64,000 bases of DNA from a virus, in the IMG/VR virus record IMGVR_UViG_3300029564_000003, positions 69,289 to 133,288 of that record; one strand, given 5' to 3'. Below the pieces are notes generated by a model. The model saw only the letters and a program-made list of their open reading frames with translations. It was not told the DNA's origin and ran no database searches. The first letter of the stretch is position 1. The number at the start of each line of letters is the position of its first letter. The position numbers and the translations under genes were made by a program. Shown one piece after another: positions 40,338 through 62,990 of this stretch.

Positions 40338-41132
40338 ATGGGAAATGCGGCATACGATTTCAATCGGAATAACTATTACAAGAAGAACAACATCATCGAC
40401 TTCGACTTTCGAGCGAAGCAGGTCGTGGCACCGAAGGCGGAAGCGCCGACTGGCGAGTACGACAATCGAGCGGGAAAGAAGACCGAGGTTTACGCAATCC
40501 GCACGGATGAAGAGGTCAAGGCTATGATTGACGTGCTGGACAAGCATATCGAGGAGGCCAACACGCCTACGCTCAAGCGTGTTGCGGCCAGGAATAAGAT
40601 GCTGTTCATCGTGGGAATCAACGTTGGTCTGCGCGCCAGCGACTTGCGCCTGTTGACTTGGGATTTCTTTTTTAAACAGATGCCAGATGGAAAATTTGAG
40701 TTCCGCGATGGATATAGTTTGCGACCCAAGAAGACGGCGCGATATCAGAAGCATGTCAATCTCCATTTCAATTCCGCCGTTAAGAAGGTTATCAGCTGGT
40801 ATGTTGAGCAGTATCCTATTGACGATATCAAGGGTTATGTTTTCCGTTCACGTCAGCTTGATAAGCCAATCACTGTAAATGCCATGTGCCGAGTTGTGAA
40901 AGAAACGGGTGAAGAAGCTGGAATCAAACAGCCGCTTGGCAGTCATTCGATGCGCAAGACTCTTGGATATAGGATGTATCATGACGCAGATAACAAGACG
41001 GAAGCCCTTATTATTCTTCAGTCAATCTATGGGCATAGCGCACCAAGTACAACGCTCAAGTACATTGGCATATCAAATGATGAAATCGAGAGTGCGTTCG
41101 GTGATTTGAACATCGGTATTGATTATATTTAG
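40338..41132 (+). CDS. int: tyrosine recombinase / phage integrase (XerC/D-like, 264 aa)
   Basis: R-box GLRASDL, HxxR (HSMRKT) and catalytic Tyr context LKYIG; TAGGAGGTT RBS. Confidence 0.75.
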   Translation: MGNAAYDFNRNNYYKKNNIIDFDFRAKQVVAPKAEAPTGEYDNRAGKKTEVYAIRTDEEVKAMIDVLDKHIEEANTPTLKRVAARNKMLFIVGINVGLRASDLRLLTWDFFFKQMPDGKFEFRDGYSLRPKKTARYQKHVNLHFNSAVKKVISWYVEQYPIDDIKGYVFRSRQLDKPITVNAMCRVVKETGEEAGIKQPLGSHSMRKTLGYRMYHDADNKTEALIILQSIYGHSAPSTTLKYIGISNDEIESAFGDLNIGIDYI

Positions 41133-44650: not shown

Positions 44651-44734
44651 CCGAGGCTGGCGAAATTGGCAGACGCATCGGACTTAAAATCCGACGGTAG
44701 CAATACCATACGAGTTCGACTCTCGTGCTTCGGA
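44651..44734 (+). tRNA. tRNA-Leu (anticodon TAA), class II with long variable arm; no encoded CCA
   Basis: Manual fold: 7-bp acceptor CCGAGGC/GCTTCGG, U8, 3-bp D-stem with 11-nt D-loop, anticodon stem TCGGA/TCCGA, loop CTTAAAA (U33, A37), 15-nt variable arm, T-arm ACGAG-TTCGACT-CTCGT. Confidence 0.6.
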
Positions 44735-44897
44735 CGTGTCACAATTGACACTGTTGTTGGAGTGCGCGAGGTGGGCGCATCGTATAAGTTGACAAGACAG
44801 GCGACTTATAATCGCCAGATGCAGGAGCGTGGCCTGCTGCGCCTACCTCCCGTACTCCAACAATTCGGAAATTTTATTGGCTAAGAAAGGAAACACA

Positions 44898-45827
44898 ATG
44901 CTCTTTTTCATCGCAGGTTGCCTCTTGGCAATCATTGGAATCGTGCTTACCATCGCTCTTGTTCGAGCAAACAAGAAGAACGACAACGATTCTACGACCC
45001 CTATCGGCGGACTTGTTGTTCTTGCCATCGGTCTCGTTCTTATCCTGCTGTCTAGCATTTATACTCAGGATGTTGGTGAGACTGTTGTTCTTCGCAACCT
45101 TGGCGGTTCCGTTGCTGGCCATTCCGAGGATGCTGGTTTCCACTTCAAGGCGCCTTGGCAGGACACTATCAAGTATGATACCCGTAACAACCTTATCAAT
45201 ATGTACGGTGACACGGAATATTCTTACGATGGTGGTTCGGCTCAGGGTTCTAAGGTCACTATCAACGATGCGTCTGGTGCCAAGGCGAACATTGATATTC
45301 AGGTGAATTATTCGCTTGACCCGTCCACTGCGGAATATCTTTACAGTGAGTATGGCACTCAGACCGTGTTCACTCAGAACTACGTGTCGCAGGATGTTCG
45401 CTCTGTCGCTCGTGAGCAAGCTGGCAAGTTCGACACCATCACGCTTCTCACCGACCGCGCTCAGTACACCAAGGCAATCACCGATGCGCTGACCGCAAAG
45501 TGGGATAAGATTGGACTGACCGTTGAGCAGGTCACTGTTCAGGATATCTCTTATCCTCAGTCCATCACCGATGCATATGCTCGCTCTCAGGAGGCCGAGG
45601 TTGAGAAGCAGACCGCCCTCAACGAGCAGGAGACCGCTAAGGTTAAGGCTGAGACAAAGGTCGTTGAGGCTGAGAAGGAGGCGGAGGCCAACCGCAAACT
45701 TGCCGAGTCTCTTACTCCCGAGGTTTTGACGAAGCAGTACTATGATACTCTTTCTGAGCTTGGCAAGAATGGCAATGTTGTCGTGACCGATGGTCGTAGC
45801 ACTCCCATTGTTAACGTCGGTAAGTAA
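44898..45827 (+). CDS. SPFH/band-7 (prohibitin/HflK-C-like) domain membrane protein
   Basis: N-terminal TM helix, then an SPFH-like core and an Ala/Glu/Lys-rich coiled-coil (QEAEVEKQTALNEQETAKVKAETKVVEAEKEAEANRKLAE) typical of band-7 proteins. Confidence 0.6.
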   Translation: MLFFIAGCLLAIIGIVLTIALVRANKKNDNDSTTPIGGLVVLAIGLVLILLSSIYTQDVGETVVLRNLGGSVAGHSEDAGFHFKAPWQDTIKYDTRNNLINMYGDTEYSYDGGSAQGSKVTINDASGAKANIDIQVNYSLDPSTAEYLYSEYGTQTVFTQNYVSQDVRSVAREQAGKFDTITLLTDRAQYTKAITDALTAKWDKIGLTVEQVTVQDISYPQSITDAYARSQEAEVEKQTALNEQETAKVKAETKVVEAEKEAEANRKLAESLTPEVLTKQYYDTLSELGKNGNVVVTDGRSTPIVNVGK

Positions 45828-46414
45828 TATGTTATTCATCGCCTCGGTATCCTTCGGGTAGTCCGTGAAAGATGATATGGCTTTGGCTATATCACGAAAG
45901 CGAAACTGTCAGAGCTAAAACCTTTGCTGGTGGTATAGGCTAAACCAGCACCTTCTGTGGAATATATTGAGCCACTCCGCCGCATTTGCAGTCAGTTCAA
46001 GCAAACGAAGAATATTAGAGAATTCCTTCATAGCTCTTGTTGGCAACGGTTAAATATATTCCACAGAGGGTTTCATCTGCAAGGCGCACATGTACGCGGC
46101 ACTATAACCACTTGTCCATATGGCTTTCTCCTTACTACTATTTGCTGTTACTTATTATTGTGGTTTTCCTCTCTTTGTGACGTGTATGTTTTTCCTTTCT
46201 CTCGCGTAATTAACTCTCTTTGGCCCGTGCGTGTGCGTCTTGCAGATGAAATCTCTCTGATATGCATCTCTACCGTGTGTAGATGATGCCCTCTGGAAGC
46301 GTCTAATCGGCGCTTCCTGTTTGGAGTGGATAACCAGTGGGGAACTGGGCTGGACTGCTAATCCAAGCGTGCCATTTGTGGCATTGGTGTCGGATACCAA
46401 TCGCTCCGCCAAAT

Positions 46415-46494
46415 GCGCCTATAGGGTAATGGAGAACCCACCTGTCTTCTAAACAGGAATTTTAATCTCAGTTCGACTCTGAGTAGGCGTACCA
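46415..46494 (+). tRNA. tRNA-Arg (anticodon TCT), CCA encoded, unusually long 9-nt variable loop
   Basis: Manual fold: acceptor GCGCCTA/TAGGCGT (G1-U72), U8, D-arm GGGT-AATGGAGA-ACCC, anticodon arm CCTGT-CTTCTAA-ACAGG, T-arm CTCAG-TTCGACT-CTGAG, discriminator A + CCA. Confidence 0.55.
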
Positions 46495-46535: not shown

Positions 46536-47138
46536 ATGAAAGGTGAAACTCGCACACCCGTCGCTCTGCTTACAAATATTGCGAGAGATTGCGAGATTTA
46601 TATGGATGAATCCAATTCATATGAACTATGGAAAGAGTTGGTGTATCAATCAGAAAACTATCCTAAATTTGAAGTATCTAATACTGGTCAATTAAGAAAC
46701 TCAAAAACAAAACACATATACAAACAACATCTAAATCATCAAGGATATTATCAGGTATGTGTTTCACTTGGCAGTAGAAGTAGCAAAAAGGTTTTCAAGA
46801 TACACAGAGCTGTTGCGGAAACATTTGTAGAAAATCCATATAACAAGCAAATTATAAATCATATAGATGGCATAAAAACAAACAATAATGCAGCTAATCT
46901 TGAATTTGTAACGCATCAAGAAAATACAATTCATGCAGTTAAAAATGGATTGACACATTATCATTATGGGGAAGATATACATAATGCAAAGTTTACAAAT
47001 GATGAAGTAAGACATATAAGAGAAATATATATTGAAAACGATAAGGAATTTGGATGTTGTGCCTTGGCAAAGAAGTACAACGTTAATCATTCTGTTATAT
47101 CAAGAATAATTCATAATAAGCATTATGCCCATGTCTAA
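46536..47138 (+). CDS. HNH homing endonuclease (phage HNH_3 type)
   Basis: GYYQVCV...KIHRAVAETFVENPYNKQIINHIDGIKTNNNAANLEFVTHQEN = HNH_3 signature; AT-rich relative to neighbours; adjacent to a tRNA. Confidence 0.7.
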   Translation: MKGETRTPVALLTNIARDCEIYMDESNSYELWKELVYQSENYPKFEVSNTGQLRNSKTKHIYKQHLNHQGYYQVCVSLGSRSSKKVFKIHRAVAETFVENPYNKQIINHIDGIKTNNNAANLEFVTHQENTIHAVKNGLTHYHYGEDIHNAKFTNDEVRHIREIYIENDKEFGCCALAKKYNVNHSVISRIIHNKHYAHV

Positions 47139-47147
47139 GGAGCAACC

Positions 47148-47534
47148 ATGAGTGACCTCAAGCAAGAATACCTCGATGCAAAGTATGCGGATTATGACGA
47201 TGAATCTGATGCTCCATATCATCGAAAGCGCAAGCACAGCAAGCCAAAGAAATCAAGTCATAAACACGAGTATGTAAATATGGTAGTCGTGAACCCAGAA
47301 AAGGAGGATGACTTTCACCTTGTTGGTGCGTGTAAGCAGTGTGGTAAGATAGGCAATGTTCAAACAGATAAAAGAATTGAACGGAAATTTCCCAATATCA
47401 AATATAAATCATACATGATTTGCCATTCTGTTGGACACGAAAGTGAATATGATGAGTTTGTGAAGTGGTGCAAAGACAACTATGAGGTTGTTGAAATCGA
47501 TTATGATGATATGTGGGATTTGAAATACATCTGA
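47148..47534 (+). CDS. hypothetical protein with basic N-terminal patch and CxxC...H.H cluster
   Basis: 128 aa; GGAGCAACC RBS. Confidence 0.45.
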   Translation: MSDLKQEYLDAKYADYDDESDAPYHRKRKHSKPKKSSHKHEYVNMVVVNPEKEDDFHLVGACKQCGKIGNVQTDKRIERKFPNIKYKSYMICHSVGHESEYDEFVKWCKDNYEVVEIDYDDMWDLKYI

Positions 47535-47551: not shown

Positions 47552-48004
47552 ATGTTTAACAGCTTCGATATGAGGATGTTTAACGAAGCTAAGAAAGAAG
47601 CCGAGAAGAGCGATTTCGATAAGTTTCATTTCGGAGCAGTGATAACATATAAAAACCGTATTATCGGCAGGGGGCATAATAGCGACAAGACGGACACAAT
47701 GCAATGTAGATATAATATCTATCGTCATTTCAACAACTTCGATGGAATAAATTATGTAAAGCACAGTATCCACGCTGAAATCAGCGCTATCAAAAGCATA
47801 CCATATGTTACTGGCAAAGAGGTTGATTTCTCTAAGTGCAGTATATATATTTACAGGATATGCGATGGCAACGAAAACGGATTCGGCAACAGTATGCCAT
47901 GTCCAGCGTGTCGTCATGCGCTTATTGATATGGGTATTACAAATATATATTACACATCTCAATATGGGTATTCATATACGAAGCTGTCGGAAGGAAAGTT
48001 ATGA
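47552..48004 (+). CDS. dCMP/cytidine deaminase-like zinc enzyme
   Basis: HAEISAI ... PCPACRHALIDMGI = the H(A/C)E and PCxxC zinc-binding motifs of the CDA fold. Confidence 0.55.
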   Translation: MFNSFDMRMFNEAKKEAEKSDFDKFHFGAVITYKNRIIGRGHNSDKTDTMQCRYNIYRHFNNFDGINYVKHSIHAEISAIKSIPYVTGKEVDFSKCSIYIYRICDGNENGFGNSMPCPACRHALIDMGITNIYYTSQYGYSYTKLSEGKL

Positions 48005-48504
48005 GAACCGTTCTTGTATCGTCTGCCAATACGATTAACGAAGACCTTGATGGACTGTGTAAATATATCGGTAAAGAACCCAAAGGTGCGTATGTGATAT
48101 CAATTACATCATCCATTCATCCTTACATAGACGCATATTATGTACGTGGTCTTTTGAAGTTGACGTTTGACGATGTTGAGTATGGTGATGAGTTCGATGG
48201 TTGTCGTGGCATCACGAAGGAAGACGCTGATGCAATCGTTGATTTCTTTGTAAACACGCCAGATGATGCTATTATAATCGTGCAATGCGACGGAGGCATC
48301 TCGCGTTCTGCTGGTGTTGCTGCGGCACTACTTCATATCGACCATGGTGGGGAAGATTTTGTCTTCATGAATCCGCTGATGTGTCCGAACAAGCTGTGTT
48401 TCACCACAGTATTGCAAAGTTATCACGACCACGAGGTGTCATGTCTTATGGATAAGTTCAAGCTTAACGAGCGTTTGAATAAGACATACAGAAAATATTA
48501 TTAA
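48001..48504 (+). CDS. CX5R protein-tyrosine/dual-specificity phosphatase-like enzyme
   Basis: P-loop VQCDGGISRSAG matches the C-x5-R(S/T) signature. Confidence 0.5.
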   Translation: MRTVLVSSANTINEDLDGLCKYIGKEPKGAYVISITSSIHPYIDAYYVRGLLKLTFDDVEYGDEFDGCRGITKEDADAIVDFFVNTPDDAIIIVQCDGGISRSAGVAAALLHIDHGGEDFVFMNPLMCPNKLCFTTVLQSYHDHEVSCLMDKFKLNERLNKTYRKYY

Positions 48505-48519
48505 CAATAAAGGAGGTGA

Positions 48520-48768
48520 GTGCATGTGCAAGATTTCGTAATGAATGATGAGCAACGAGAGCTGGCAGAGAAACACCACGACCTTATCTATAAGGTTGCA
48601 AATGAATGGGGTTTTGATGTAGATGAGTATTACGGAGATATGGCAATCGGTTTATGCTATGCTGTAGGAGCTATCGGTAAGTGCTGTAAGAGCGCCGATT
48701 TCGACAAGATAGCCACGGCATTCATGGTGGCAGAATGTTATAGGCCAACTTCTAAATATTACTATTAA
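48520..48768 (+). CDS. hypothetical protein (82 aa)
   Basis: AAAGGAGGTGAG RBS. Confidence 0.5.
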   Translation: MHVQDFVMNDEQRELAEKHHDLIYKVANEWGFDVDEYYGDMAIGLCYAVGAIGKCCKSADFDKIATAFMVAECYRPTSKYYY

Positions 48769-48813
48769 GGTTATATGCTAGTATGTATATTAGCCATGAG
48801 AAAGGTGAAGGAA

Positions 48814-49422
48814 ATGAGCAAGTATAAAATCAGCGATGTCATCAAGGATATCGATGAGCAGCTTGACGCGTGTGTTTTGTGCGAAGGCTCTTTCGTTGGT
48901 TGTAGCGAGTACGACCAGCTTTGGAAGCGACGTGACATGCTGCAAAAGTTTGACGAGTGGGGCTATGAGTTTGTCGATGAAAACGACAACCGAATCCTGG
49001 ATAACGGCATAATCGTTCCGATTCCAGACAGGTATCGTAGCATTGGTGATGACAACGACGATGTTTCCGATTCCATCAACGATGATGGCGATGACGTGGA
49101 TGAAGAGGATGTAGACCTTGCCGTTGCCGCTCTTGAGGATGTTCTCGATATCATGGATGTGTCTGACAAGGTTCTCGATATCCTTGGCGATGCTGAGTTC
49201 GAGACCCATGTCATTACCGCAGATACCTATGATTCTGTGAACGTCTCCGTCACAACAGACTTCGGCTACAGCACCGCTGTCGGGAAGACGTATCCGTACA
49301 ACATTTGCGACAACAACGAACTTCTTTCGTCTGTTGTGTTCGACCTTGTTCGTGATATCGTTATCGAGCTTGAGGGCAACTATACATATATGCGTCTCAT
49401 GTTCGAGAACTGTGTCGACTAA
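48814..49422 (+). CDS. hypothetical highly acidic protein
   Basis: GAAAGGTGAAGGAA RBS before MSKYKISD; Asp-rich central region. Confidence 0.45.
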   Translation: MSKYKISDVIKDIDEQLDACVLCEGSFVGCSEYDQLWKRRDMLQKFDEWGYEFVDENDNRILDNGIIVPIPDRYRSIGDDNDDVSDSINDDGDDVDEEDVDLAVAALEDVLDIMDVSDKVLDILGDAEFETHVITADTYDSVNVSVTTDFGYSTAVGKTYPYNICDNNELLSSVVFDLVRDIVIELEGNYTYMRLMFENCVD

Positions 49423-49434
49423 GGAGTATGAAAA

Positions 49435-50619
49435 GTGTATCTTGATAACGCGGCCACGACTAAAATCAAAGACGAAGTCCTTGATGCCATGATGCCGTAT
49501 CTTACAGAGCAATTCTACAATCCATCCTCTCTGTACTCAGAGTCGGTAAAGGTTAAAGAGGCAGTTGACAATGCTCGCTCAATGGTCGGAGAATTCATCG
49601 GTTCAAAGCCGAATGAGATTTACTTCACGAGTGGTGGCAGCGAAGCTAACAGCTGGGCTATTCAAGGCTTCGTCAATAGCCGACTGAATAAGAAGCGGTT
49701 GCCGTATATCATCACCACTGATATCGAGCACAAGTCAATTCTTGATTGTGTGAAGAATCAGACCTTGGCAACCAAGTATCATCTTGGCGTTGATTATGAG
49801 GGTTACGTCTCCAAGGACGAACTCAATGATGCAATTGCGCTCATGATTAACAGCGGTGCAAATCCCGCCGATATTCTCGTGTCTATTCAGTTCGCCAACA
49901 ACGAGGTTGGAAGCATCCAGAATATCGAGGAGCTGTCAGAGGTCGCGCATATGTACGGCTGCGTGTTCCACACCGATGCCGTTCAGGCTTTTGGACAGCT
50001 GAAGATTGATGTGAATGACATGGGTATCGATATGCTCACGGCATCTGCTCACAAGATTGGTGGAGCCAAGGGCACTGGATTCCTGTATATCAAGAACAAG
50101 ATTCGCAGCAAGTACAAGTTCGCACCTCTTGTCTATGGCAGTCAGATGGGCAATCTTCGAGGCGGTACCGAGAACGTGGCTGGCATTGTGGGTATGGCTA
50201 AGGCCGTCGAGCTTATCAAGGATAAGTGGAAGGATGGTGCCGCACTTGCCATGACACGAGATTATTTCATCAATAAGCTCATCGTCATGGGTTGCGATGT
50301 GAATGGCGCTGTTCCAACTGGTGATGATGGTATCAACGACCGTCTTCCGAACAACGTGAACGTCATTCTTCCCGATGGTGTAGCGGCGGAGAATCTGCTG
50401 TATGCGCTTGATTCTGATGGGGTTAAAATCGGAACTGGTTCCGCTTGCAACTCGAAGTCTGTCAAGCCGTCATATGTTTTGAAGGCTATGCACAAGACTG
50501 ATGATGAGTGTTCGCGTAGCATCCGCATCACCATTCCAGATGATATGACTATGAGTGATGTCGATGAGGTTGTCGAGGTAATCGACAAGAATATCGCCGT
50601 GCTTAAGAACATTGGTTAA
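49435..50619 (+). CDS. iscS: cysteine desulfurase (IscS/NifS-like, class V aminotransferase fold)
   Basis: PLP-lysine motif SAHKIGGAKGTGFLYI and catalytic-Cys loop GSACNSKSVKPSYVLKAM closely match IscS motifs; GTG start with AAGGAG RBS. Confidence 0.75.
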   Translation: MYLDNAATTKIKDEVLDAMMPYLTEQFYNPSSLYSESVKVKEAVDNARSMVGEFIGSKPNEIYFTSGGSEANSWAIQGFVNSRLNKKRLPYIITTDIEHKSILDCVKNQTLATKYHLGVDYEGYVSKDELNDAIALMINSGANPADILVSIQFANNEVGSIQNIEELSEVAHMYGCVFHTDAVQAFGQLKIDVNDMGIDMLTASAHKIGGAKGTGFLYIKNKIRSKYKFAPLVYGSQMGNLRGGTENVAGIVGMAKAVELIKDKWKDGAALAMTRDYFINKLIVMGCDVNGAVPTGDDGINDRLPNNVNVILPDGVAAENLLYALDSDGVKIGTGSACNSKSVKPSYVLKAMHKTDDECSRSIRITIPDDMTMSDVDEVVEVIDKNIAVLKNIG

Positions 50620-50635
50620 AATATTGTGTATGTTT

Positions 50636-50690
50636 TATGGTCGTCAATTGTATATGCTGTGATATCGTTGACGACCATATTATTTTATAG
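50636..50690 (+). terminator. possible terminator hairpin
   Basis: ATGGTCGTCAA...TTGACGACCAT 11-bp stem, long loop, ATTATTTTA. Confidence 0.3.
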
Positions 50691-50710
50691 ATTTGAAGTG
50701 AGGTGTGTAT

Positions 50711-51889
50711 ATGATTGTAAATGGCGAACGCGCACTAGCCTATATCGTTAATGTCGATAGCATCACGCCTATCGACGGCGCAGACAACATCGAGCTTGCG
50801 CATGTCGGCGGATGGAGTCTGATTACCAACATAGGACAGTTCAAGGCTGGTGATGAAGCGGTCTTCTTCGAAATCGATTCGCTGCTTCCAGAGGCGGAGT
50901 GGTCTGAGTTCCTGCGTCCTAAGAAGTTCCGAATTAAGACCCTTCGTCTTAATAAGTTCGGTGTGTGGTCTCAGGGCTTGCTCATGCCGATGGATATCCT
51001 GCCGAAGGGTAAGTCGTTCAAAGTCGGCGATGATGTAACCAAGGTTCTCGGCGTGAAGTATTACGTCGCAGAGGACAATGAGCGCAAGGCGAAGAACCCA
51101 AATCCAAATCAGAAGTACAACCGCATGTGCGCACGCAATCCCAAGCTTGCTCAGAAACCTTGGTTCAAGTGGCTCATGAAGCGCCTGTGGGGTCGCAAGC
51201 TGCTGTTCGTCTTCTTCGGACATAAGAGCGATAATCCAAAGAAGTTCCCGCAGTGGATTAAACGGACTGATGAAGATAGGGTGGAGAATGTCATGTGGCT
51301 ACTCGATGACAAATCACCATATGTAGTAACCGAGAAAATCGATGGAACTTCGCTGACGGTATTCCTAGATTTGACTGGTCGTAAACCAGACTTCGGGGTG
51401 TGTTCTCGTAACGTACGTCAGATTGATATGTATAAAGAGAACTTCCATACTGAATCAGCTGGCACCAACGTATACTGGGAGGCAGCGCTTCGGTATGACC
51501 TCAAGACCGTGTGCGAGAAGATTGCAAAGGAGACTGGCAGCAAGCGCGTTGTGATTCAGGGCGAGGTGTACGGTGAGGGCATTCAGGGCAATCCATTACA
51601 TATCGACCACCGCGACCTAGCCGTGTTTAATCTTGTGCTTGACGGCGTGCGTCTTGGCTCCATTGAGGCCGATAATATCTTATGGAAGTACGGTGTCCCG
51701 TTCGTTCCGATTCTCGATGAATCCTTTATTCTCCCCGACAAGGAGGACTTCGAGGACTTCAAGTTGTACGCGGACGGTAAAAGCGTAATTAATAAGAAGT
51801 GTCTGCGTGAAGGTGTCGTATGCCGTAGTCAAGATGGTCAGAAGTCGTTTAAGAACGTCAGTCGCAAATGGCTGATGCAGCATGAGTAG
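50711..51889 (+). CDS. ATP-dependent polynucleotide ligase; RNA ligase-like with N-terminal OB-like domain (Rnl5/DraRnl-like architecture)
   Basis: Nucleotidyltransferase motif I KIDGT (EKIDGTSLTV) ~200 aa from the N-terminus, motif III-like VIQGEVYGEG, motif V-like REGVVCR...K. Confidence 0.5.
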   Translation: MIVNGERALAYIVNVDSITPIDGADNIELAHVGGWSLITNIGQFKAGDEAVFFEIDSLLPEAEWSEFLRPKKFRIKTLRLNKFGVWSQGLLMPMDILPKGKSFKVGDDVTKVLGVKYYVAEDNERKAKNPNPNQKYNRMCARNPKLAQKPWFKWLMKRLWGRKLLFVFFGHKSDNPKKFPQWIKRTDEDRVENVMWLLDDKSPYVVTEKIDGTSLTVFLDLTGRKPDFGVCSRNVRQIDMYKENFHTESAGTNVYWEAALRYDLKTVCEKIAKETGSKRVVIQGEVYGEGIQGNPLHIDHRDLAVFNLVLDGVRLGSIEADNILWKYGVPFVPILDESFILPDKEDFEDFKLYADGKSVINKKCLREGVVCRSQDGQKSFKNVSRKWLMQHE

Positions 51890-51897
51890 GTGAAGAT

Positions 51898-52344
51898 ATG
51901 ATTGGCATGTATCGCGTATTTGATAAGAATAAGCAAGAATATGTCGATGGTTTCTATACGGCTAACGATGGCGCTTTGTGCCATATGAAGAAGCGTAAAC
52001 TTCTTCCCGACAAGCTCGTATATGTTCATGGGATTGATGAGAATGCAGACCGATTCGCACTGCAATATGCGACAGGAATCCGTGATAAGAACGACCGACT
52101 GATTTATGAGGGTGATATCTGCAAGTTGTATAATTTGCCAGATGGAACTGCTCGCGCGGTCATTTCTTGGAGCGATGAGATTGGGTTGTTCTGCGCATTC
52201 GACTTCGATAATGAGAAGTATTACAGCATTTATGGTAATGCATCATCCGATAATATCGAGGTCGTAGGCGATATCTGTACGGGTAACTATCAGGATGTTG
52301 CCATCGAAGACGATAATGACGAGGAGGTTGATAGCGATGGCTAA
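51898..52344 (+). CDS. hypothetical protein (possibly YopX-like)
   Basis: 148 aa; acidic C-terminus; weak. Confidence 0.4.
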   Translation: MIGMYRVFDKNKQEYVDGFYTANDGALCHMKKRKLLPDKLVYVHGIDENADRFALQYATGIRDKNDRLIYEGDICKLYNLPDGTARAVISWSDEIGLFCAFDFDNEKYYSIYGNASSDNIEVVGDICTGNYQDVAIEDDNDEEVDSDG

Positions 52345-53212
52345 GCTTCTAAAGGGCGCTGATATTCGTGCTATTGTAGAAGAGTATGTAAGCAAGAACA
52401 CGAGTATGCTGAAGAAGTTTAACAAGCCTCCCGTGCGTCTAGCTGTCGTTCTCGTTGGCAATGATATGGCATCGAGCGTGTACGTCAGGAATAAGACGAG
52501 GGCTTGCGAGCGATGTGGTATCGAGTGCAAGAACTATGTCCTCGATGAGTTTTCAAGCGCAGATGATATCATCATGCTTATCAAGAAGCTGAACCACGAT
52601 GACAATGTGAATGGAATCTTGTTGCAACTTCCGCTGCCAGAACACCTCAAGGAGGACGAAGAGCGAATCTTGCAGTCAATCAACCCGAATAAGGATGTTG
52701 ATGGATTCTGCTACAACAATGTCGGTAAACTTCATCGTGGCCGACTGAAAGATGCACTCATTCCATGTACAGCAGCTGGTATCATGTACATGTTGAAGTA
52801 TAATCAAATCGATATCGCAGGTAAGCATTGCGTTATCGTGGGCAGGAGCAACATCGTCGGCAAGCCCCTTGCTGGGCTGATGCTTGATAATGATGCTACT
52901 GTTACAGTATGTCATTCTAAGACGGAGAACCTGAAGGATATCTGCAAGCAAGCGGATATCTTGGTGTGCGCAATTGGCAAGCCAAAGTTTTTCGATGAAT
53001 CTTATGTGAAGGATGGTGCCACAGTTATCGATGTGGGCATAAACAGGGATGAGAACGGCGAGCTGTGCGGCGATGTTGATTTTAACTCGGTGTTTGACAA
53101 GGCATCGGCAATCACGCCTGTTCCTGGCGGTGTCGGTGTTCTTACTGTGACAGAGCTTATGCGTAATTGTCTGAGGGCCTGGGAAATCCAGCATAAGAGA
53201 GGATGGTTTTGA
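52337..53212 (+). CDS. folD: bifunctional 5,10-methylene-tetrahydrofolate dehydrogenase/cyclohydrolase
   Basis: Near-diagnostic FolD blocks: VLVGNDMASSVYVRNKTRACE, GILLQLPLP, DKDVDGF, GRSNIVGKP, VGKP, VIDVGINR. Confidence 0.88.
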   Translation: MAKLLKGADIRAIVEEYVSKNTSMLKKFNKPPVRLAVVLVGNDMASSVYVRNKTRACERCGIECKNYVLDEFSSADDIIMLIKKLNHDDNVNGILLQLPLPEHLKEDEERILQSINPNKDVDGFCYNNVGKLHRGRLKDALIPCTAAGIMYMLKYNQIDIAGKHCVIVGRSNIVGKPLAGLMLDNDATVTVCHSKTENLKDICKQADILVCAIGKPKFFDESYVKDGATVIDVGINRDENGELCGDVDFNSVFDKASAITPVPGGVGVLTVTELMRNCLRAWEIQHKRGWF

Positions 53213-53676
53213 TGGGAAAAGGAGCATCATTGAAGGTGTACCTTGCTGGGAAGATGAGCGGGTTGTCATGGGATGAGATGCAGCAGTGGCGTAGGGAGTT
53301 CTCACAGCATGTAAATGAGCATACGCACAATTGCAACATGCAAAACAAAGTCCGTATCTTCAATCCGTGTGATTATTATAACCCGCTATTGTCAGAGGAT
53401 GATGTTGATGGATTCATCGACCGAGAGGCAATGCAGTTCGATATCTACCATCTGAAGGATTCCGATATCGTAGTGGCAAATCTCGATGGCGATAGCATCG
53501 GAACGGCAATGGAGGTCGCGATTGCCAAAGACAACGGCATTCCTGTAATAGGCATATGCCACGATAAGTCAGCGCTGCATCCATGGCTCAAAGAAAGCTG
53601 TATGGCTTTGTGCAATTCGCTGTATGATGCAGAGGCATATGTGTGCGACTATCTCATCCTTCCGATGATGGCATAG
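53212..53676 (+). CDS. nucleoside 2-deoxyribosyltransferase-like / DNPH1-like (NDT-fold) protein
   Basis: VYLAGKMSG ... GTAMEVAIAKDNGIPVIG fits the NDT-family YLAG...G(T/S)xxExGxA pattern; ATG overlaps the folD stop. Confidence 0.45.
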   Translation: MGKGASLKVYLAGKMSGLSWDEMQQWRREFSQHVNEHTHNCNMQNKVRIFNPCDYYNPLLSEDDVDGFIDREAMQFDIYHLKDSDIVVANLDGDSIGTAMEVAIAKDNGIPVIGICHDKSALHPWLKESCMALCNSLYDAEAYVCDYLILPMMA

Positions 53677-53679
53677 CAA

Positions 53680-53925
53680 TGTGTCTTTTATGTGTTGTAA
53701 TTGTTTTGGTATAGACCGATATTGACTTTTTGTATAATATGTTGTATAATACCGCTTGTAAATAGATAAGGTTATATGCAATTGAGTCATGTGCGATATA
53801 ATGCAAATGGCAATATTTTGCGAAACCGAACGGTCGCAATATTATGCGACAATCAACGTGTGTAAAGTTTTGCATATTGTGCGAAATGCAAAAGTATGCA
53901 AGCTAAGAAAGAAATAGGAGGATAT
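53680..53925 (+). promoter_or_regulatory. regulatory intergenic region with repeated TTGCGAAA/TCGCAATATT/TTGCATATTGTGCGAAATGCAAA palindromic motifs
   Basis: Near-palindrome AATATTTTGCGA-N11-TCGCAATATT at ~53806-53840; precedes the replication module. Confidence 0.45.
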
Positions 53926-55103: not shown

Positions 55104-55134
55104 TGGAGGGCGGTTTGATTCGCCCTCCTTCTTT
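55104..55134 (+). terminator. rho-independent terminator
   Basis: GGAGGGCG-GTTTGATT-CGCCCTCC + TTCTTTTG. Confidence 0.55.
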
Positions 55135-61543: not shown

Positions 61544-61801
61544 GTGCGTATGAACGTTGAAGAGATTCCGCAGAATCAGGCGGATAACTTGGTTGAGATT
61601 ATCGACGGGTATATGGTCAAAGGCGGACATCACATCAATGTGAATGTATTTGACCGTGAGACGCTTATTGATGCTCAGAAGCATCCTGAGAAGTATCCTC
61701 AACTCACTATACGTGTATCGGGATATTGCGTGGCGTTCAATAACCTCACCAAGGAACAGCAAGACGAGGTTATCGCTCGCACGTTCCATGAAAATATGTA
61801 A
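61544..61801 (+). CDS. grcA: autonomous glycyl-radical cofactor (GrcA/YfiD-like; PFL C-terminal domain mimic)
   Basis: [59 protein letters not shown] aligns nearly residue-for-residue with the GrcA/PFL glycine-radical motif RVSGY. Confidence 0.85.
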
Positions 61802-62198: not shown

Positions 62199-62990
62199 AT
62201 GTTTCAGATTTACAATGACGACTGTCTAAATGTGTTGAAAGACATGGACGATAATTGTATTGATTTGACGGTTACATCACCACCATATGACAAGCTTAGG
62301 AAATACAACGGCAGTATCGAACAGTGGAGCTTTGATAAGTTCATGGATATCGCGCATGAGCTTTACAGGGTGACTAAAGACGGCGGTGTCGTTGTATGGA
62401 TTGTCAATGATTCTACTGTCAACGGAAGTGAGACTGGCACGTCGTTTAAACAGGCATTGTATTTCATCGAGTGTGGGTTTAGGTTATATGACACTATGAT
62501 TTGGGAGAAGCCGAGTCCAGCTGCGCCAACGCAAGATAGATATTACGACGTGTTCGAGTATATGTTCGTGTTCTCAAAGGGCAAACCAAAGTCGATACAT
62601 CTGCTTGAAGACAGAAAGAACAAGTCTGCTGGTACAAAGTCGCATAGGGAGACGAGGTCGTGCAGGGAAGACAGAAAGATTAAAGAAGAGATGCGTACTG
62701 TGAAGGAATACGGCAGAAGGTTCAATGTGTGGCATGTGTCCAGAGGTTTGAACAAGACGAAGCACCCAGCTGTATTCCCAGAGCAACTTGCGCAAGACCA
62801 CATTCTGTCTTGGAGCAACGAGGGCGACGTTGTCCTAGACCCGTTCATGGGGAGCGGCACCACTGGCAAGATGGCATTGTTGAATAATAGAGATTTTGTA
62901 GGCTGCGAGATAGATTCGGATTATTACGATATTGCGTATGATAGAATCTTAGATTGTCAATTGGAAAAGTGCGTAGATAGGTTGGTGTAG
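62199..62990 (+). CDS. DNA methyltransferase, beta-class (N4-cytosine or N6-adenine), SPPY motif
   Basis: Motif IV TSPPY near the N-terminus and motif I VLDPFMGSGTTG near the C-terminus. Confidence 0.7.
   Translation: MFQIYNDDCLNVLKDMDDNCIDLTVTSPPYDKLRKYNGSIEQWSFDKFMDIAHELYRVTKDGGVVVWIVNDSTVNGSETGTSFKQALYFIECGFRLYDTMIWEKPSPAAPTQDRYYDVFEYMFVFSKGKPKSIHLLEDRKNKSAGTKSHRETRSCREDRKIKEEMRTVKEYGRRFNVWHVSRGLNKTKHPAVFPEQLAQDHILSWSNEGDVVLDPFMGSGTTGKMALLNNRDFVGCEIDSDYYDIAYDRILDCQLEKCVDRLV

Follow-up and report, generated by a model that had tools for sequence, protein, structure and literature searches.

Genes of the interval and their genomic setting

A 64,000-nt stretch of viral DNA (positions 69,289 to 133,288 of IMG/VR record IMGVR_UViG_3300029564_000003; this whole stretch is called the window) contains a block of nine open reading frames (ORFs) at window positions 47552–53676. 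All nine are encoded on the + strand and either overlap or are separated by gaps of at most 86 nt. An earlier note, made from the letters alone, had recognized six enzymes in this block: a cytidine deaminase (CDA)-fold protein, a CX5R phosphatase, an IscS-like cysteine desulfurase, an RNA ligase-like protein, FolD, and a protein with the nucleoside 2-deoxyribosyltransferase (NDT) fold. Searches with profiles, homologues, and structures reproduced these six family calls. The interval also encodes a YopX-family protein and two ORFs without a recognizable family. Since all enzymes of the block, FolD included, score below the NCBIfam equivalog cut-offs, they are given family-level names only; each of these block proteins is a new member of a known family.

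A human gut contig of 133,308 bp (ENA ERZ27235212 k119_136267) matches the window with 100% identity, and coordinates from two look-ups of this contig are compatible with a circular assembly. Structural and replication proteins match SPbeta-named Pfam families (YonD, YonB, YomW, YomU, YorH, and YopX). An alignment-based scan of GTDB retrieved relatives as 80–160-kb contigs binned with Lachnospiraceae and other Clostridia; a GTDB scan with a single protein found no relatives, and megablast of the region against phage records gave no match. Judged from its sequence, this is an SPbeta-like phage (related to Bacillus phage SPbeta) of ~133 kb and of anaerobic Clostridia. The interval 47552–53676 is an accessory part of the early region. 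Three tRNA genes and an HNH endonuclease gene precede it, and directly downstream lies the replication module (YorF-L-like genes) with AAA_24, YorH, a DnaB-like helicase, a primase, and a PD-(D/E)XK nuclease. By exact-protein look-ups, the genes just past the window end encode DNA polymerase III alpha, a 314-aa kinase, and a RecD2-like helicase. The block is probably transcribed as a single unit: a terminator scan detected no convincing terminator within it, and the region's best sigma-70-like promoter match (TTGACT-17-TATAAT, 53722–53750, +; 11 of 12 positions, a match to the consensus only) falls in the 252-nt gap 3' of the NDT gene that separates the block from the replication module.

The deaminase gene (47552–48004, +) codes for a zinc enzyme, probably of the dCMP-deaminase/ComEB type. 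It matches Pfam dCMP_cyt_deam_1 (6.6e-16, 58.5 bits with a cut-off of 25) and PHROG 174, "dCMP deaminase" (1.2e-14); the ComEB model scores 26 bits with an equivalog cut-off of 219. Both halves of the zinc site, HAEISA and PCPAC, are present in the sequence. The best solved relative, the dCMP deaminase from S. mutans (2hvv, 2.4e-4), shares with it the long insertion before the HAE motif that is typical of dCMP deaminases. The folD ORF opens at 52295, and the gene probably starts at 52337 (52337–53212, +). Its product contains two tetrahydrofolate (THF) dehydrogenase/cyclohydrolase domains (8.3e-65, 217.4 bits, cut-off 27; 6.9e-33, 113.8 bits, cut-off 32.8) with visible YVRNK and PGGVG motifs, and by these features is a bifunctional 5,10-methylene-THF dehydrogenase/methenyl-THF cyclohydrolase. 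The last gene (53230–53676, +; ORF opening at 53203) is kept just upstream of the replication module in relatives and codes for an NDT/DNPH1-fold protein. It matches PF05014 (Nuc_deoxyrib_tr, 1e-7, 32.5 bits with a cut-off of 28.8) and PF15891 (Nuc_deoxyri_tr2, 2.2e-7, 31.6 bits with a cut-off of 30), and its GTAMEVAIA segment aligns with GVASEIGVA, the segment containing the catalytic glutamate in the solved deoxyribosyltransferase 7m5h.

The desulfurase gene (49435–50619, +) codes for a NifS/IscS-type (group I) protein with matches to Aminotran_5 (8.5e-59) and to the NifS model (3.9e-103). Residues H99, D181, Q184, K207, C338, and R364 are invariant between this protein and bacterial IscS, with K207 in the loop SAHKIGG and C338 in the loop GSACNS. 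The equivalog scores remain under their cut-offs for NifS (345 bits, cut-off 531), DndA (265, cut-off 480), and IscS (247, cut-off 643).

The ligase gene (50705–51889, +) codes for an ATP-dependent RNA ligase with an N-terminal OB domain (PHA02142 OB, PF21189, 2e-19, residues 11–96) followed by a nucleotidyltransferase domain (RNA_ligase, PF09414, 4.5e-19). This architecture defines the Rnl5 family (PMC4408790). The earlier description of the protein as Rnl5-like is borne out by a match to NgrRnl (5cot) at 3.8e-38 over both domains: the OB region aligns with NgrRnl residues 3–121, and TEKIDGTS aligns with NgrRnl TVKLDGSS, which places the KIDGT motif on the adenylylation lysine. Six phage homologues all retain K211, D213, and G214. 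Since the alignment reaches residue 393 of 394 in the phage protein and 337 of 340 in NgrRnl, there is no C-terminal domain. The following gene (51898–52344, +; Pfam YopX, 7e-11) belongs to the SPbeta family YopX and is kept between IscS and NDT in syntenic relatives.

The phosphatase gene (48001–48504, +) was assigned through its homologues and its predicted structure. Alone, the protein scores E 0.086 (13.1 bits) with Pfam DSPc, under the gathering cut-off of 33.5. Homologues found at E ~1e-15 carry Pfam DSPc, and the FDDVE segment, a candidate acid loop, and the (H/Q)CxxGxSRSAG loop are kept in 25 sequences of the family. In the QCDGGISRS P-loop of the phage protein, C96, G99, S101, R102, and S103 are invariant among these 25. 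The sequence has no direct match in the PDB. An AlphaFold model (pLDDT 87.6) gave DUSP15 as the best Foldseek match in the PDB (7.6e-4), followed by MKP5, PRL-1, and DUSP1. The top 50 matches are nearly all members of the dual-specificity phosphatase (DSP)/protein tyrosine phosphatase superfamily, with two PTEN-type proteins near the bottom; probabilities are ~1 and TM-scores ~0.5. The protein belongs to a phage family, PHROG 5614. Homologues also occur in other gut phage contigs of 125–206 kb (L093–L096), which encode YqeY, a Thg1-like tRNA-His guanylyltransferase, ribosomal protein S21, and an ATP-grasp/radical-SAM fusion.

A probable mosaic of helper functions

Searches were anchored on four different genes in IMG/VR, and in GTDB on g53928, a gene following NDT, and the window proteins were mapped onto every locus. 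Fetched loci carry labels such as L008, L089, and L294; L087, L089, and L294 also served as extensions beyond the window. Pfam gene lists covered window positions 23–64 kb and DNA past both window ends, and ~105 kb was examined overall. Loci anchored on IscS, the ligase, FolD, and g53928 share a family backbone with the order IscS ... YopX-(FolD)-NDT-g53928-AAA_24-YorH-helicase-primase. IscS is found in 9 of the 13 informative g53928-anchored loci, upstream of the replication module and usually preceded by a phage-specific gene, c11. To judge from this sequence comparison, IscS is a core gene of the phage family and the conserved anchor of the block. None of the nine IscS-bearing loci (0/9) contains an RNA ligase in this region. 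The RNA-repair genes, the phosphatase, CDA, and FolD each vary in occurrence independently of the others: FolD is missing in many family members that have IscS and NDT, and CDA is missing in most. In the FolD-anchored loci from outside the family, phage FolD genes lacked CDA, NDT, IscS, and ThyA as companions. Because the genes turn over independently, the early region looks like a plastic mosaic of modules and not like one pathway. On a modest balance of probability, we favor the explanation that the interval combines three helper functions: supply of deoxynucleoside triphosphates (dNTPs), repair of breaks, and mobilization of sulfur. This explanation builds on observed families and folds, catalytic motifs, gene order, and co-occurrence counts, from which substrates, co-transcription, and the Fe-S role of IscS are inferred.

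In the first of these functions, the dCMP-deaminase-like enzyme would make dUMP, FolD would keep 5,10-methylene-THF and 10-formyl-THF available, and the NDT/DNPH1-fold enzyme would cleave or exchange N-glycosidic bonds of deoxynucleosides or deoxynucleotides. These activities would add to those of NrdD, NrdG, and dUTPase, whose genes lie farther downstream in near-identical relatives. In two relatives the gene order past the window is a 299-aa radical S-adenosylmethionine (SAM)-like protein, NrdD (ATP-cone and NRDD domains), NrdG (Fer4_12 and Radical_SAM), dUTPase, a 275-aa radical-SAM protein, a serine recombinase, and tail genes on the opposite strand. The relatives bearing NrdD, NrdG, and dUTPase share ~95% identity with one another and 91–95% with this genome where they can be aligned, and in them these three genes and the two radical-SAM genes sit 20–30 kb downstream. 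A dUTPase and an anaerobic ribonucleotide reductase thus belong to the gene set of the phage lineage. The earlier note had set the block apart from standard dNTP-synthesis sets on the premise that the window has no reductase, thymidylate synthase, or dNMP kinase; as regards the reductase, this premise was a product of the window boundary.

Thymidylate synthase would presumably be borrowed from the host. Queries with E. coli ThyA and T. maritima ThyX, which did detect true homologues in unrelated loci as a positive control, gave no tblastn match in the window, L087, L089, or L294. A dNMP kinase was also not found among the dNTP-supply genes of the phage. An autonomous glycyl-radical protein of the GrcA/YfiD type (83 aa, window 61550–61801, +; Gly_radical 6e-23) may be a spare part for oxygen-damaged pyruvate formate-lyase; in combination with FolD, it could sustain the flow of one-carbon units from formate while the phage is infecting its host.

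As for the second function, RNA repair is well supported by gene neighborhoods, that is, by comparison of sequences. Rnl5 enzymes seal nicks that have an RNA 3'-OH strand, and their natural substrates are unknown (PMC4408790, PMC5397189). Homologues of DraRnl in phages had already been noted (PMC4408790), and at the Rnl5 locus of D. radiodurans a 5'-OH kinase is encoded in the neighboring operon (PMC5397189). Among 80 phage Rnl5 loci inspected for neighbors within 10 kb, 58 contain a kinase of the AAA_33 type with a C-terminal HD region (kinase-HD), usually as the next gene, and 37 contain a metallophosphoesterase, typically right after the kinase. The kinase-HD gene of this genome (L089:19368–20312) lies 19.7 kb downstream of the ligase, and its product is 46.5% identical to the copy beside Rnl in L008. 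Among solved structures, the protein is most similar to the polynucleotide-kinase domain of Pnkp from Clostridium thermocellum (CthPnkp). The C-terminal half contains the HD phosphohydrolase motifs HH..LGHH, LHDVGK, HYYNHE, and LHEAD; many homologues carry PF01966, and the copy in this genome has no direct Pfam HD match. Other family members have a 754-aa CthPnkp-like kinase-metallophosphoesterase-Rnl1 fusion together with YqeY in the slot after IscS. Two non-orthologous heal-and-seal cassettes at a single position are good evidence for selection of RNA or nick repair there.

We envisage that kinase-HD would heal the ends before Rnl5 seals 3'-OH/5'-phosphate nicks with an RNA 3' strand. Possible targets are structured RNA that has been cleaved, or nicks in DNA that contain RNA, and the likely purpose would be to undo RNA cleavage by host defense nucleases or to seal such nicks. 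The DSP-fold phosphatase is a candidate for an additional end-processing enzyme, a possible role suggested by sequence: in seven loci (L200, L222, L225, L228, L230, L231, and L239), phosphatase and RNA ligase genes are adjacent or nearly so. No characterized RNA-repair system is known to include a DSP-fold cysteine phosphatase.

The orthologous Rnl5 gene of a 126-kb relative is split by an intein with a LAGLIDADG endonuclease (L001:11208–13469; Intein_splicing 3.6e-16, LAGLIDADG_2 1.2e-31). The HNH homing endonuclease gene that flanks the block (46536–47138, +; HNH_3 7e-9, NUMOD4 2.8e-7) is probably a mobile insertion. Together, these two elements mark the region as a hotspot for selfish elements.

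Proposed sulfur mobilization and competing explanations

Which process might consume the sulfur mobilized by the phage desulfurase? The lineage contains three radical-SAM-type genes, coding for NrdG, the 299-aa protein, which has a CxxxCxxC motif, and the 275-aa protein (PF04055, 4.4e-8). The 299-aa family gave no sequence match in the PDB, and wherever enough flanking sequence is available it is found alongside IscS. The three genes and this co-occurrence favor Fe-S sulfur supply as the function of IscS. Most plausibly, the radical-SAM enzymes of the phage obtain sulfur for their Fe-S clusters from this enzyme: it would convert cysteine to persulfide sulfur, which would pass through host IscU to the [4Fe-4S] clusters of NrdG and of the 299-aa and 275-aa proteins.

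The gene for the 299-aa protein is part of a trio, in which two paralogous proteins with the N-terminal motif (V/I)(F/W)ETNSSSxHS precede the ~300-aa radical-SAM-like protein (L089:20331–20741, just past the window end; L294:10960–13181; L008:14025–15890; L028:13159–14942). The ETNSSSxHS partners belong to no Pfam family, and in the loci examined the trio always occurs with IscS and usually with Rnl5 and kinase-HD. Two further phage proteins neighbor IscS. The first, c11, is a 167-aa phage-specific protein encoded upstream (motif C..D.FNL..G..LA..R; L002:997–1500, L011:9490–9993, and 11 other loci), with only motif-level similarity to c31 (E 0.02). The second, c17, is an HD-motif protein of ~220 aa encoded downstream (SSSGKYHP...LHDC.KPDD; L011:12210–12908 and others). 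Neither was found in the window or in the two flanks searched, where the DSP-fold phosphatase and the two family-less ORFs hold the upstream position.

The closest cellular homologues of the phage IscS (42–44% identity) are encoded in Rrf2-IscS-IscU-MnmA operons. Such operons are minimal iron-sulfur cluster (ISC) systems of Firmicutes and serve both Fe-S assembly and tRNA 2-thiolation. Four "UNVERIFIED" GenBank records from human feces labeled "Bacteriophage sp." (L003–L006; MT835613, MT835487, MT835701, and MT835511) were rejected as phages because they look like bacterial fragments, and were used as cellular homologues only. They contain Rrf2-IscS-IscU-MnmA-PHP, a BglG-type antiterminator, and BREX BrxL; an IscS-like gene directly follows BREX brxL in L006, and sequence clustering points to the same arrangement in L048 and L055.

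Several observations weigh against the combination of three helper functions, or against the assignment of IscS within it. The hosts have a desulfurase of their own, so that the phage radical-SAM enzymes may not need the phage one. The 299-aa protein itself matches Pfam Radical_SAM weakly (E 0.074 for the copy of this lineage, 6.5e-6 for the L008 orthologue). Among 54 dereplicated IscS loci, IscS is next to an HD or HD-motif protein in 17 and next to a metallophosphoesterase in 7, and in some phages (L014, L017, and L024) a PAPS-reductase-like PP-loop ATPase is encoded beside it; these neighbors hint at a more specific role than the mosaic provides. The CDA-bearing loci in the ligase-anchored set all have IscS (16/16, in two lineages ~35% identical), a count that, like the other co-occurrence counts given here, takes no account of shared ancestry. 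In this genome, the ligase and kinase-HD genes are not neighbors. The link between the phosphatase and repair is weak, since an RNA ligase lies within 10 kb of only 16 of 80 phosphatase-family loci and ThyA or ThyX lies near seven other loci of this family. Finally, the evidence for NrdD, NrdG, and the radical-SAM genes comes from ~95% identical relatives and not from the contig of the window, and ~30 kb, probably with tail and structural genes, fell outside the searches and could hold a thymidylate synthase or a thiolase.

These points raise the question as to whether the block could instead encode a single system for RNA or tRNA repair and remodification. In such a system, ligase, kinase-HD, and phosphatase would mend tRNAs cut by host anticodon nucleases, and IscS, with a thiolase of host or phage or with the radical-SAM protein and its partners, would restore or add a protective sulfur modification, much as Hen1 methylation does in bacterial Pnkp/Hen1. 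The proximity of IscS and RNA ligase genes fits this idea. An RNA ligase gene occurs within 10 kb in 11 of the 54 dereplicated IscS loci, from several divergent phage lineages, and 18 of the 80 Rnl5 loci have IscS within 10 kb. Two different RNA-repair cassettes occupy the post-IscS slot within the same family, and in L017 and L024 the PAPS-reductase/PP-loop ATPase beside IscS is accompanied by a ligase and a kinase-HD gene. The neighborhood includes YqeY, with its tRNA-binding-like domain, as well as three tRNA genes, and the closest cellular IscS homologues share operons with MnmA. Against this stands the retention of IscS in nine g53928-anchored loci, not one of which has a regional ligase. 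RNA thiolation also takes more than a desulfurase alone, and no PP-loop thiolase was detected by tblastn in the window and the first two extensions, or in the Pfam lists of extensions and relatives. The three phage tRNAs are Leu-UAA, Ile-UAU, and Arg-UCU, and none of these classes is known to carry 2-thiouridine (s2U). Codon usage points the same way, with a preference of phage genes for G-ending Lys, Glu, and Gln codons; on this ground we also rejected the idea that IscS boosts s2U34 for the reading of A-ending codons. From the present analysis, a single repair-and-remodification system appears unlikely. The earlier note had proposed an RNA repair-and-thiolation module as one of two readings: its repair half is upheld by the gene neighborhoods, and its thiolation half is left without support, given the many IscS genes kept without a ligase and no thiolase in the parts examined.

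A broader version of this idea is more speculative, and we regard it as doubtful. IscS, Rnl5, kinase-HD, a phosphoesterase of the HD, metallophosphoesterase, or DSP type, and the 299-aa radical-SAM-like protein along with the ETNSSSxHS partners might form one undescribed system of large phages of gut and rumen anaerobes. This system would repair cleaved RNA and add a sulfur- or radical-SAM-dependent modification at or near the repair site to confer nuclease resistance, and the window would hold a dispersed version of it.

The other reading of the earlier note, hypermodification of DNA or nucleotides, is very improbable. According to this reading, dUMP from the deaminase and one-carbon units from FolD would feed a pathway to a modified base, which would be made or put in place by the pyridoxal phosphate (PLP) enzyme and the enzyme with the NDT fold. 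It is true that genes for CDA, FolD, a PLP enzyme, and an enzyme acting on N-glycosidic bonds are co-oriented and tightly packed, that the lack of a detected phage thymidylate synthase leaves the fate of dUMP open, and that a DNA N6/N4 methylase gene (window 62199–62990) shows that the phage modifies DNA. However, the PLP enzyme is a cysteine desulfurase with a catalytic cysteine loop and not a decarboxylase or aminotransferase of thymidine hypermodification. The Pfam lists contain no thymidylate synthase-like hydroxymethylase, no TGT/DpdA, and no other known modification family; 5-hydroxymethyluracil DNA kinase and aminoacyl- or glycosyltransferases were not searched individually. With neither a thymidylate synthase nor a hydroxymethylase in ~105 kb, including the DNA beyond the window where the earlier note had suggested to look, this reading is without support. 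It is further weakened by the loss and gain of FolD and CDA among close relatives and by the lack of a link between FolD and CDA, NDT, or ThyA in other phages.

Finally, a role of IscS as a DndA/SspA-type donor for phosphorothioation of phage DNA, or in interference with a phosphorothioate-based host defense, is barely credible: the DndA model does match IscS (1.1e-78) and PAPS-reductase-like (DndC/SspD-like) genes adjoin IscS in L014, L017, L024, L044, L047, and L056, but the DndA score is far under the equivalog cut-off, the NifS model scores higher, tblastn found no PAPS-reductase-like gene in the window, L087, or L089, and no Pfam list contains a DndD/E or SspB/C family.

Neighboring features and relation to known systems

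The remaining ORFs of the block have no family. A small protein of ~80 aa (48520–48768, +) has no match in Pfam, PHROG, or NCBIfam; tblastn matches in L001, L101, L177, and L264–267 show that it is kept between CDA and IscS in relatives. The next ORF (48775–49422, +), directly upstream of IscS, codes for an acidic protein of 202–215 aa (pI 4.05, 52 Asp and Glu in 215 aa), again without a match in Pfam, PHROG, or NCBIfam and without a tblastn match in the loci anchored on IscS, Rnl, and the phosphatase. As a matter of speculation, its composition resembles that of DNA-mimic anti-defense proteins. We rejected the possibility that it is a diverged c11 (hhalign probability 0.2%), and it is unrelated to a gp49_66-like protein of L008. 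Just 5' of the block, a 128-aa protein (47148–47534, +) without a Pfam match travels with the CDA gene, as tblastn matches just 5' of CDA in L001, L110, and L177 indicate.

The tRNA genes for Leu-UAA, Ile-UAU, and Arg-UCU lie within window positions 44651–46494 (+), with a gene for an SPFH/Band_7 membrane protein (44829–45827) between them; the codons that they read, TTA, ATA, and AGA, are rare in the early genes of the phage. A strong terminator-like hairpin (55105–55128, +; nine pairs, seven of them G-C, followed by a T-run) is located directly 3' of g53928, within what seems to be a single replication operon. The window contains a tyrosine-recombinase-like gene (40338–41132, +). In a near-identical relative, a gene for a large serine recombinase (Resolvase and Zn_ribbon_recom, L297:13860–15110) lies where the early region ends, which parallels the serine integrase of SPbeta and suggests a temperate lifestyle.

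Literature searches for phage cysteine desulfurases, phage FolD, and SPbeta-like gut phages, with incomplete coverage, returned no paper on this cluster, no description of the Rnl5/kinase-HD pairing in phages, and neither a characterized phage desulfurase nor a phage IscS as a conserved family gene. The cluster is genuine and of moderate interest, as a variation on systems of known kinds and not as a new pathway; the phage IscS and the Rnl5/kinase-HD/phosphatase set are the newer parts of the mosaic. Rnl5 ligases are widespread, and their consistent pairing with kinase-HD in phages, often with a third phosphoesterase, offers a concrete system for testing what these ligases repair in infection, for example, damage by RNA-cleaving host defenses. 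A desulfurase as a core gene of a family of ~130-kb gut phages suggests that the supply of sulfur or Fe-S clusters limits phage replication in anaerobes. More generally, a fixed window can make an ordinary set of dNTP-supply genes look exotic.

Phage dNTP-supply sets include the T4 dCMP deaminase Cd, NrdD/NrdG, and dUTPase, and phage T4 also has a GrcA homologue; the present lineage likewise has a deaminase, an anaerobic reductase with its activase, a dUTPase, and a spare glycyl-radical protein. In contrast to those sets, it adds FolD and the NDT/DNPH1-fold protein, its genes are split over two places in the genome, and neither thymidylate synthase nor dNMP kinase was found in the parts examined. 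The desulfurase resembles the IscS/YrvO-type enzymes of Firmicutes in length, in sequence (42–44% identity), and in the retention of all PLP-binding and catalytic residues. Unlike these enzymes, the phage copy has no adjacent IscU, MnmA, or regulator, it falls below every NCBIfam equivalog cut-off, and in most phage relatives it is flanked by c11, the HD-motif protein, or both.

The small DSP fold and the HCX5R(S) loop of the phosphatase are reminiscent of RNA 5'-end phosphatases such as PIR1/DUSP11 and baculovirus BVP, which is also virus-encoded. The phage protein differs from them by the lack of detectable sequence similarity to solved structures and by a glutamine in place of the histidine before the catalytic cysteine. 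The ligase shares its two-domain architecture, the KxDG lysine motif, and the absence of a C-terminal module with DraRnl from Deinococcus radiodurans and NgrRnl from Naegleria gruberi. It is longer (394 aa versus ~340), with an insertion of roughly 50 aa in the linker between the domains, and is paired with a kinase-HD protein here as in most of the phage loci. The putative combination of an ATP-dependent ligase with a kinase for 5'-OH ends and a 2',3'-phosphoesterase would follow the same logic as T4 Pnkp with Rnl1 and as Pnkp/Hen1 of C. thermocellum. In contrast to these systems, the phage ligase belongs to Rnl5, which prefers nicked duplexes, and not to Rnl1 or Rnl4; no Hen1 is seen in this phage; the predicted phosphoesterase is an HD domain fused C-terminally to the kinase; and the genes are dispersed, with a DSP-fold phosphatase added to the set.

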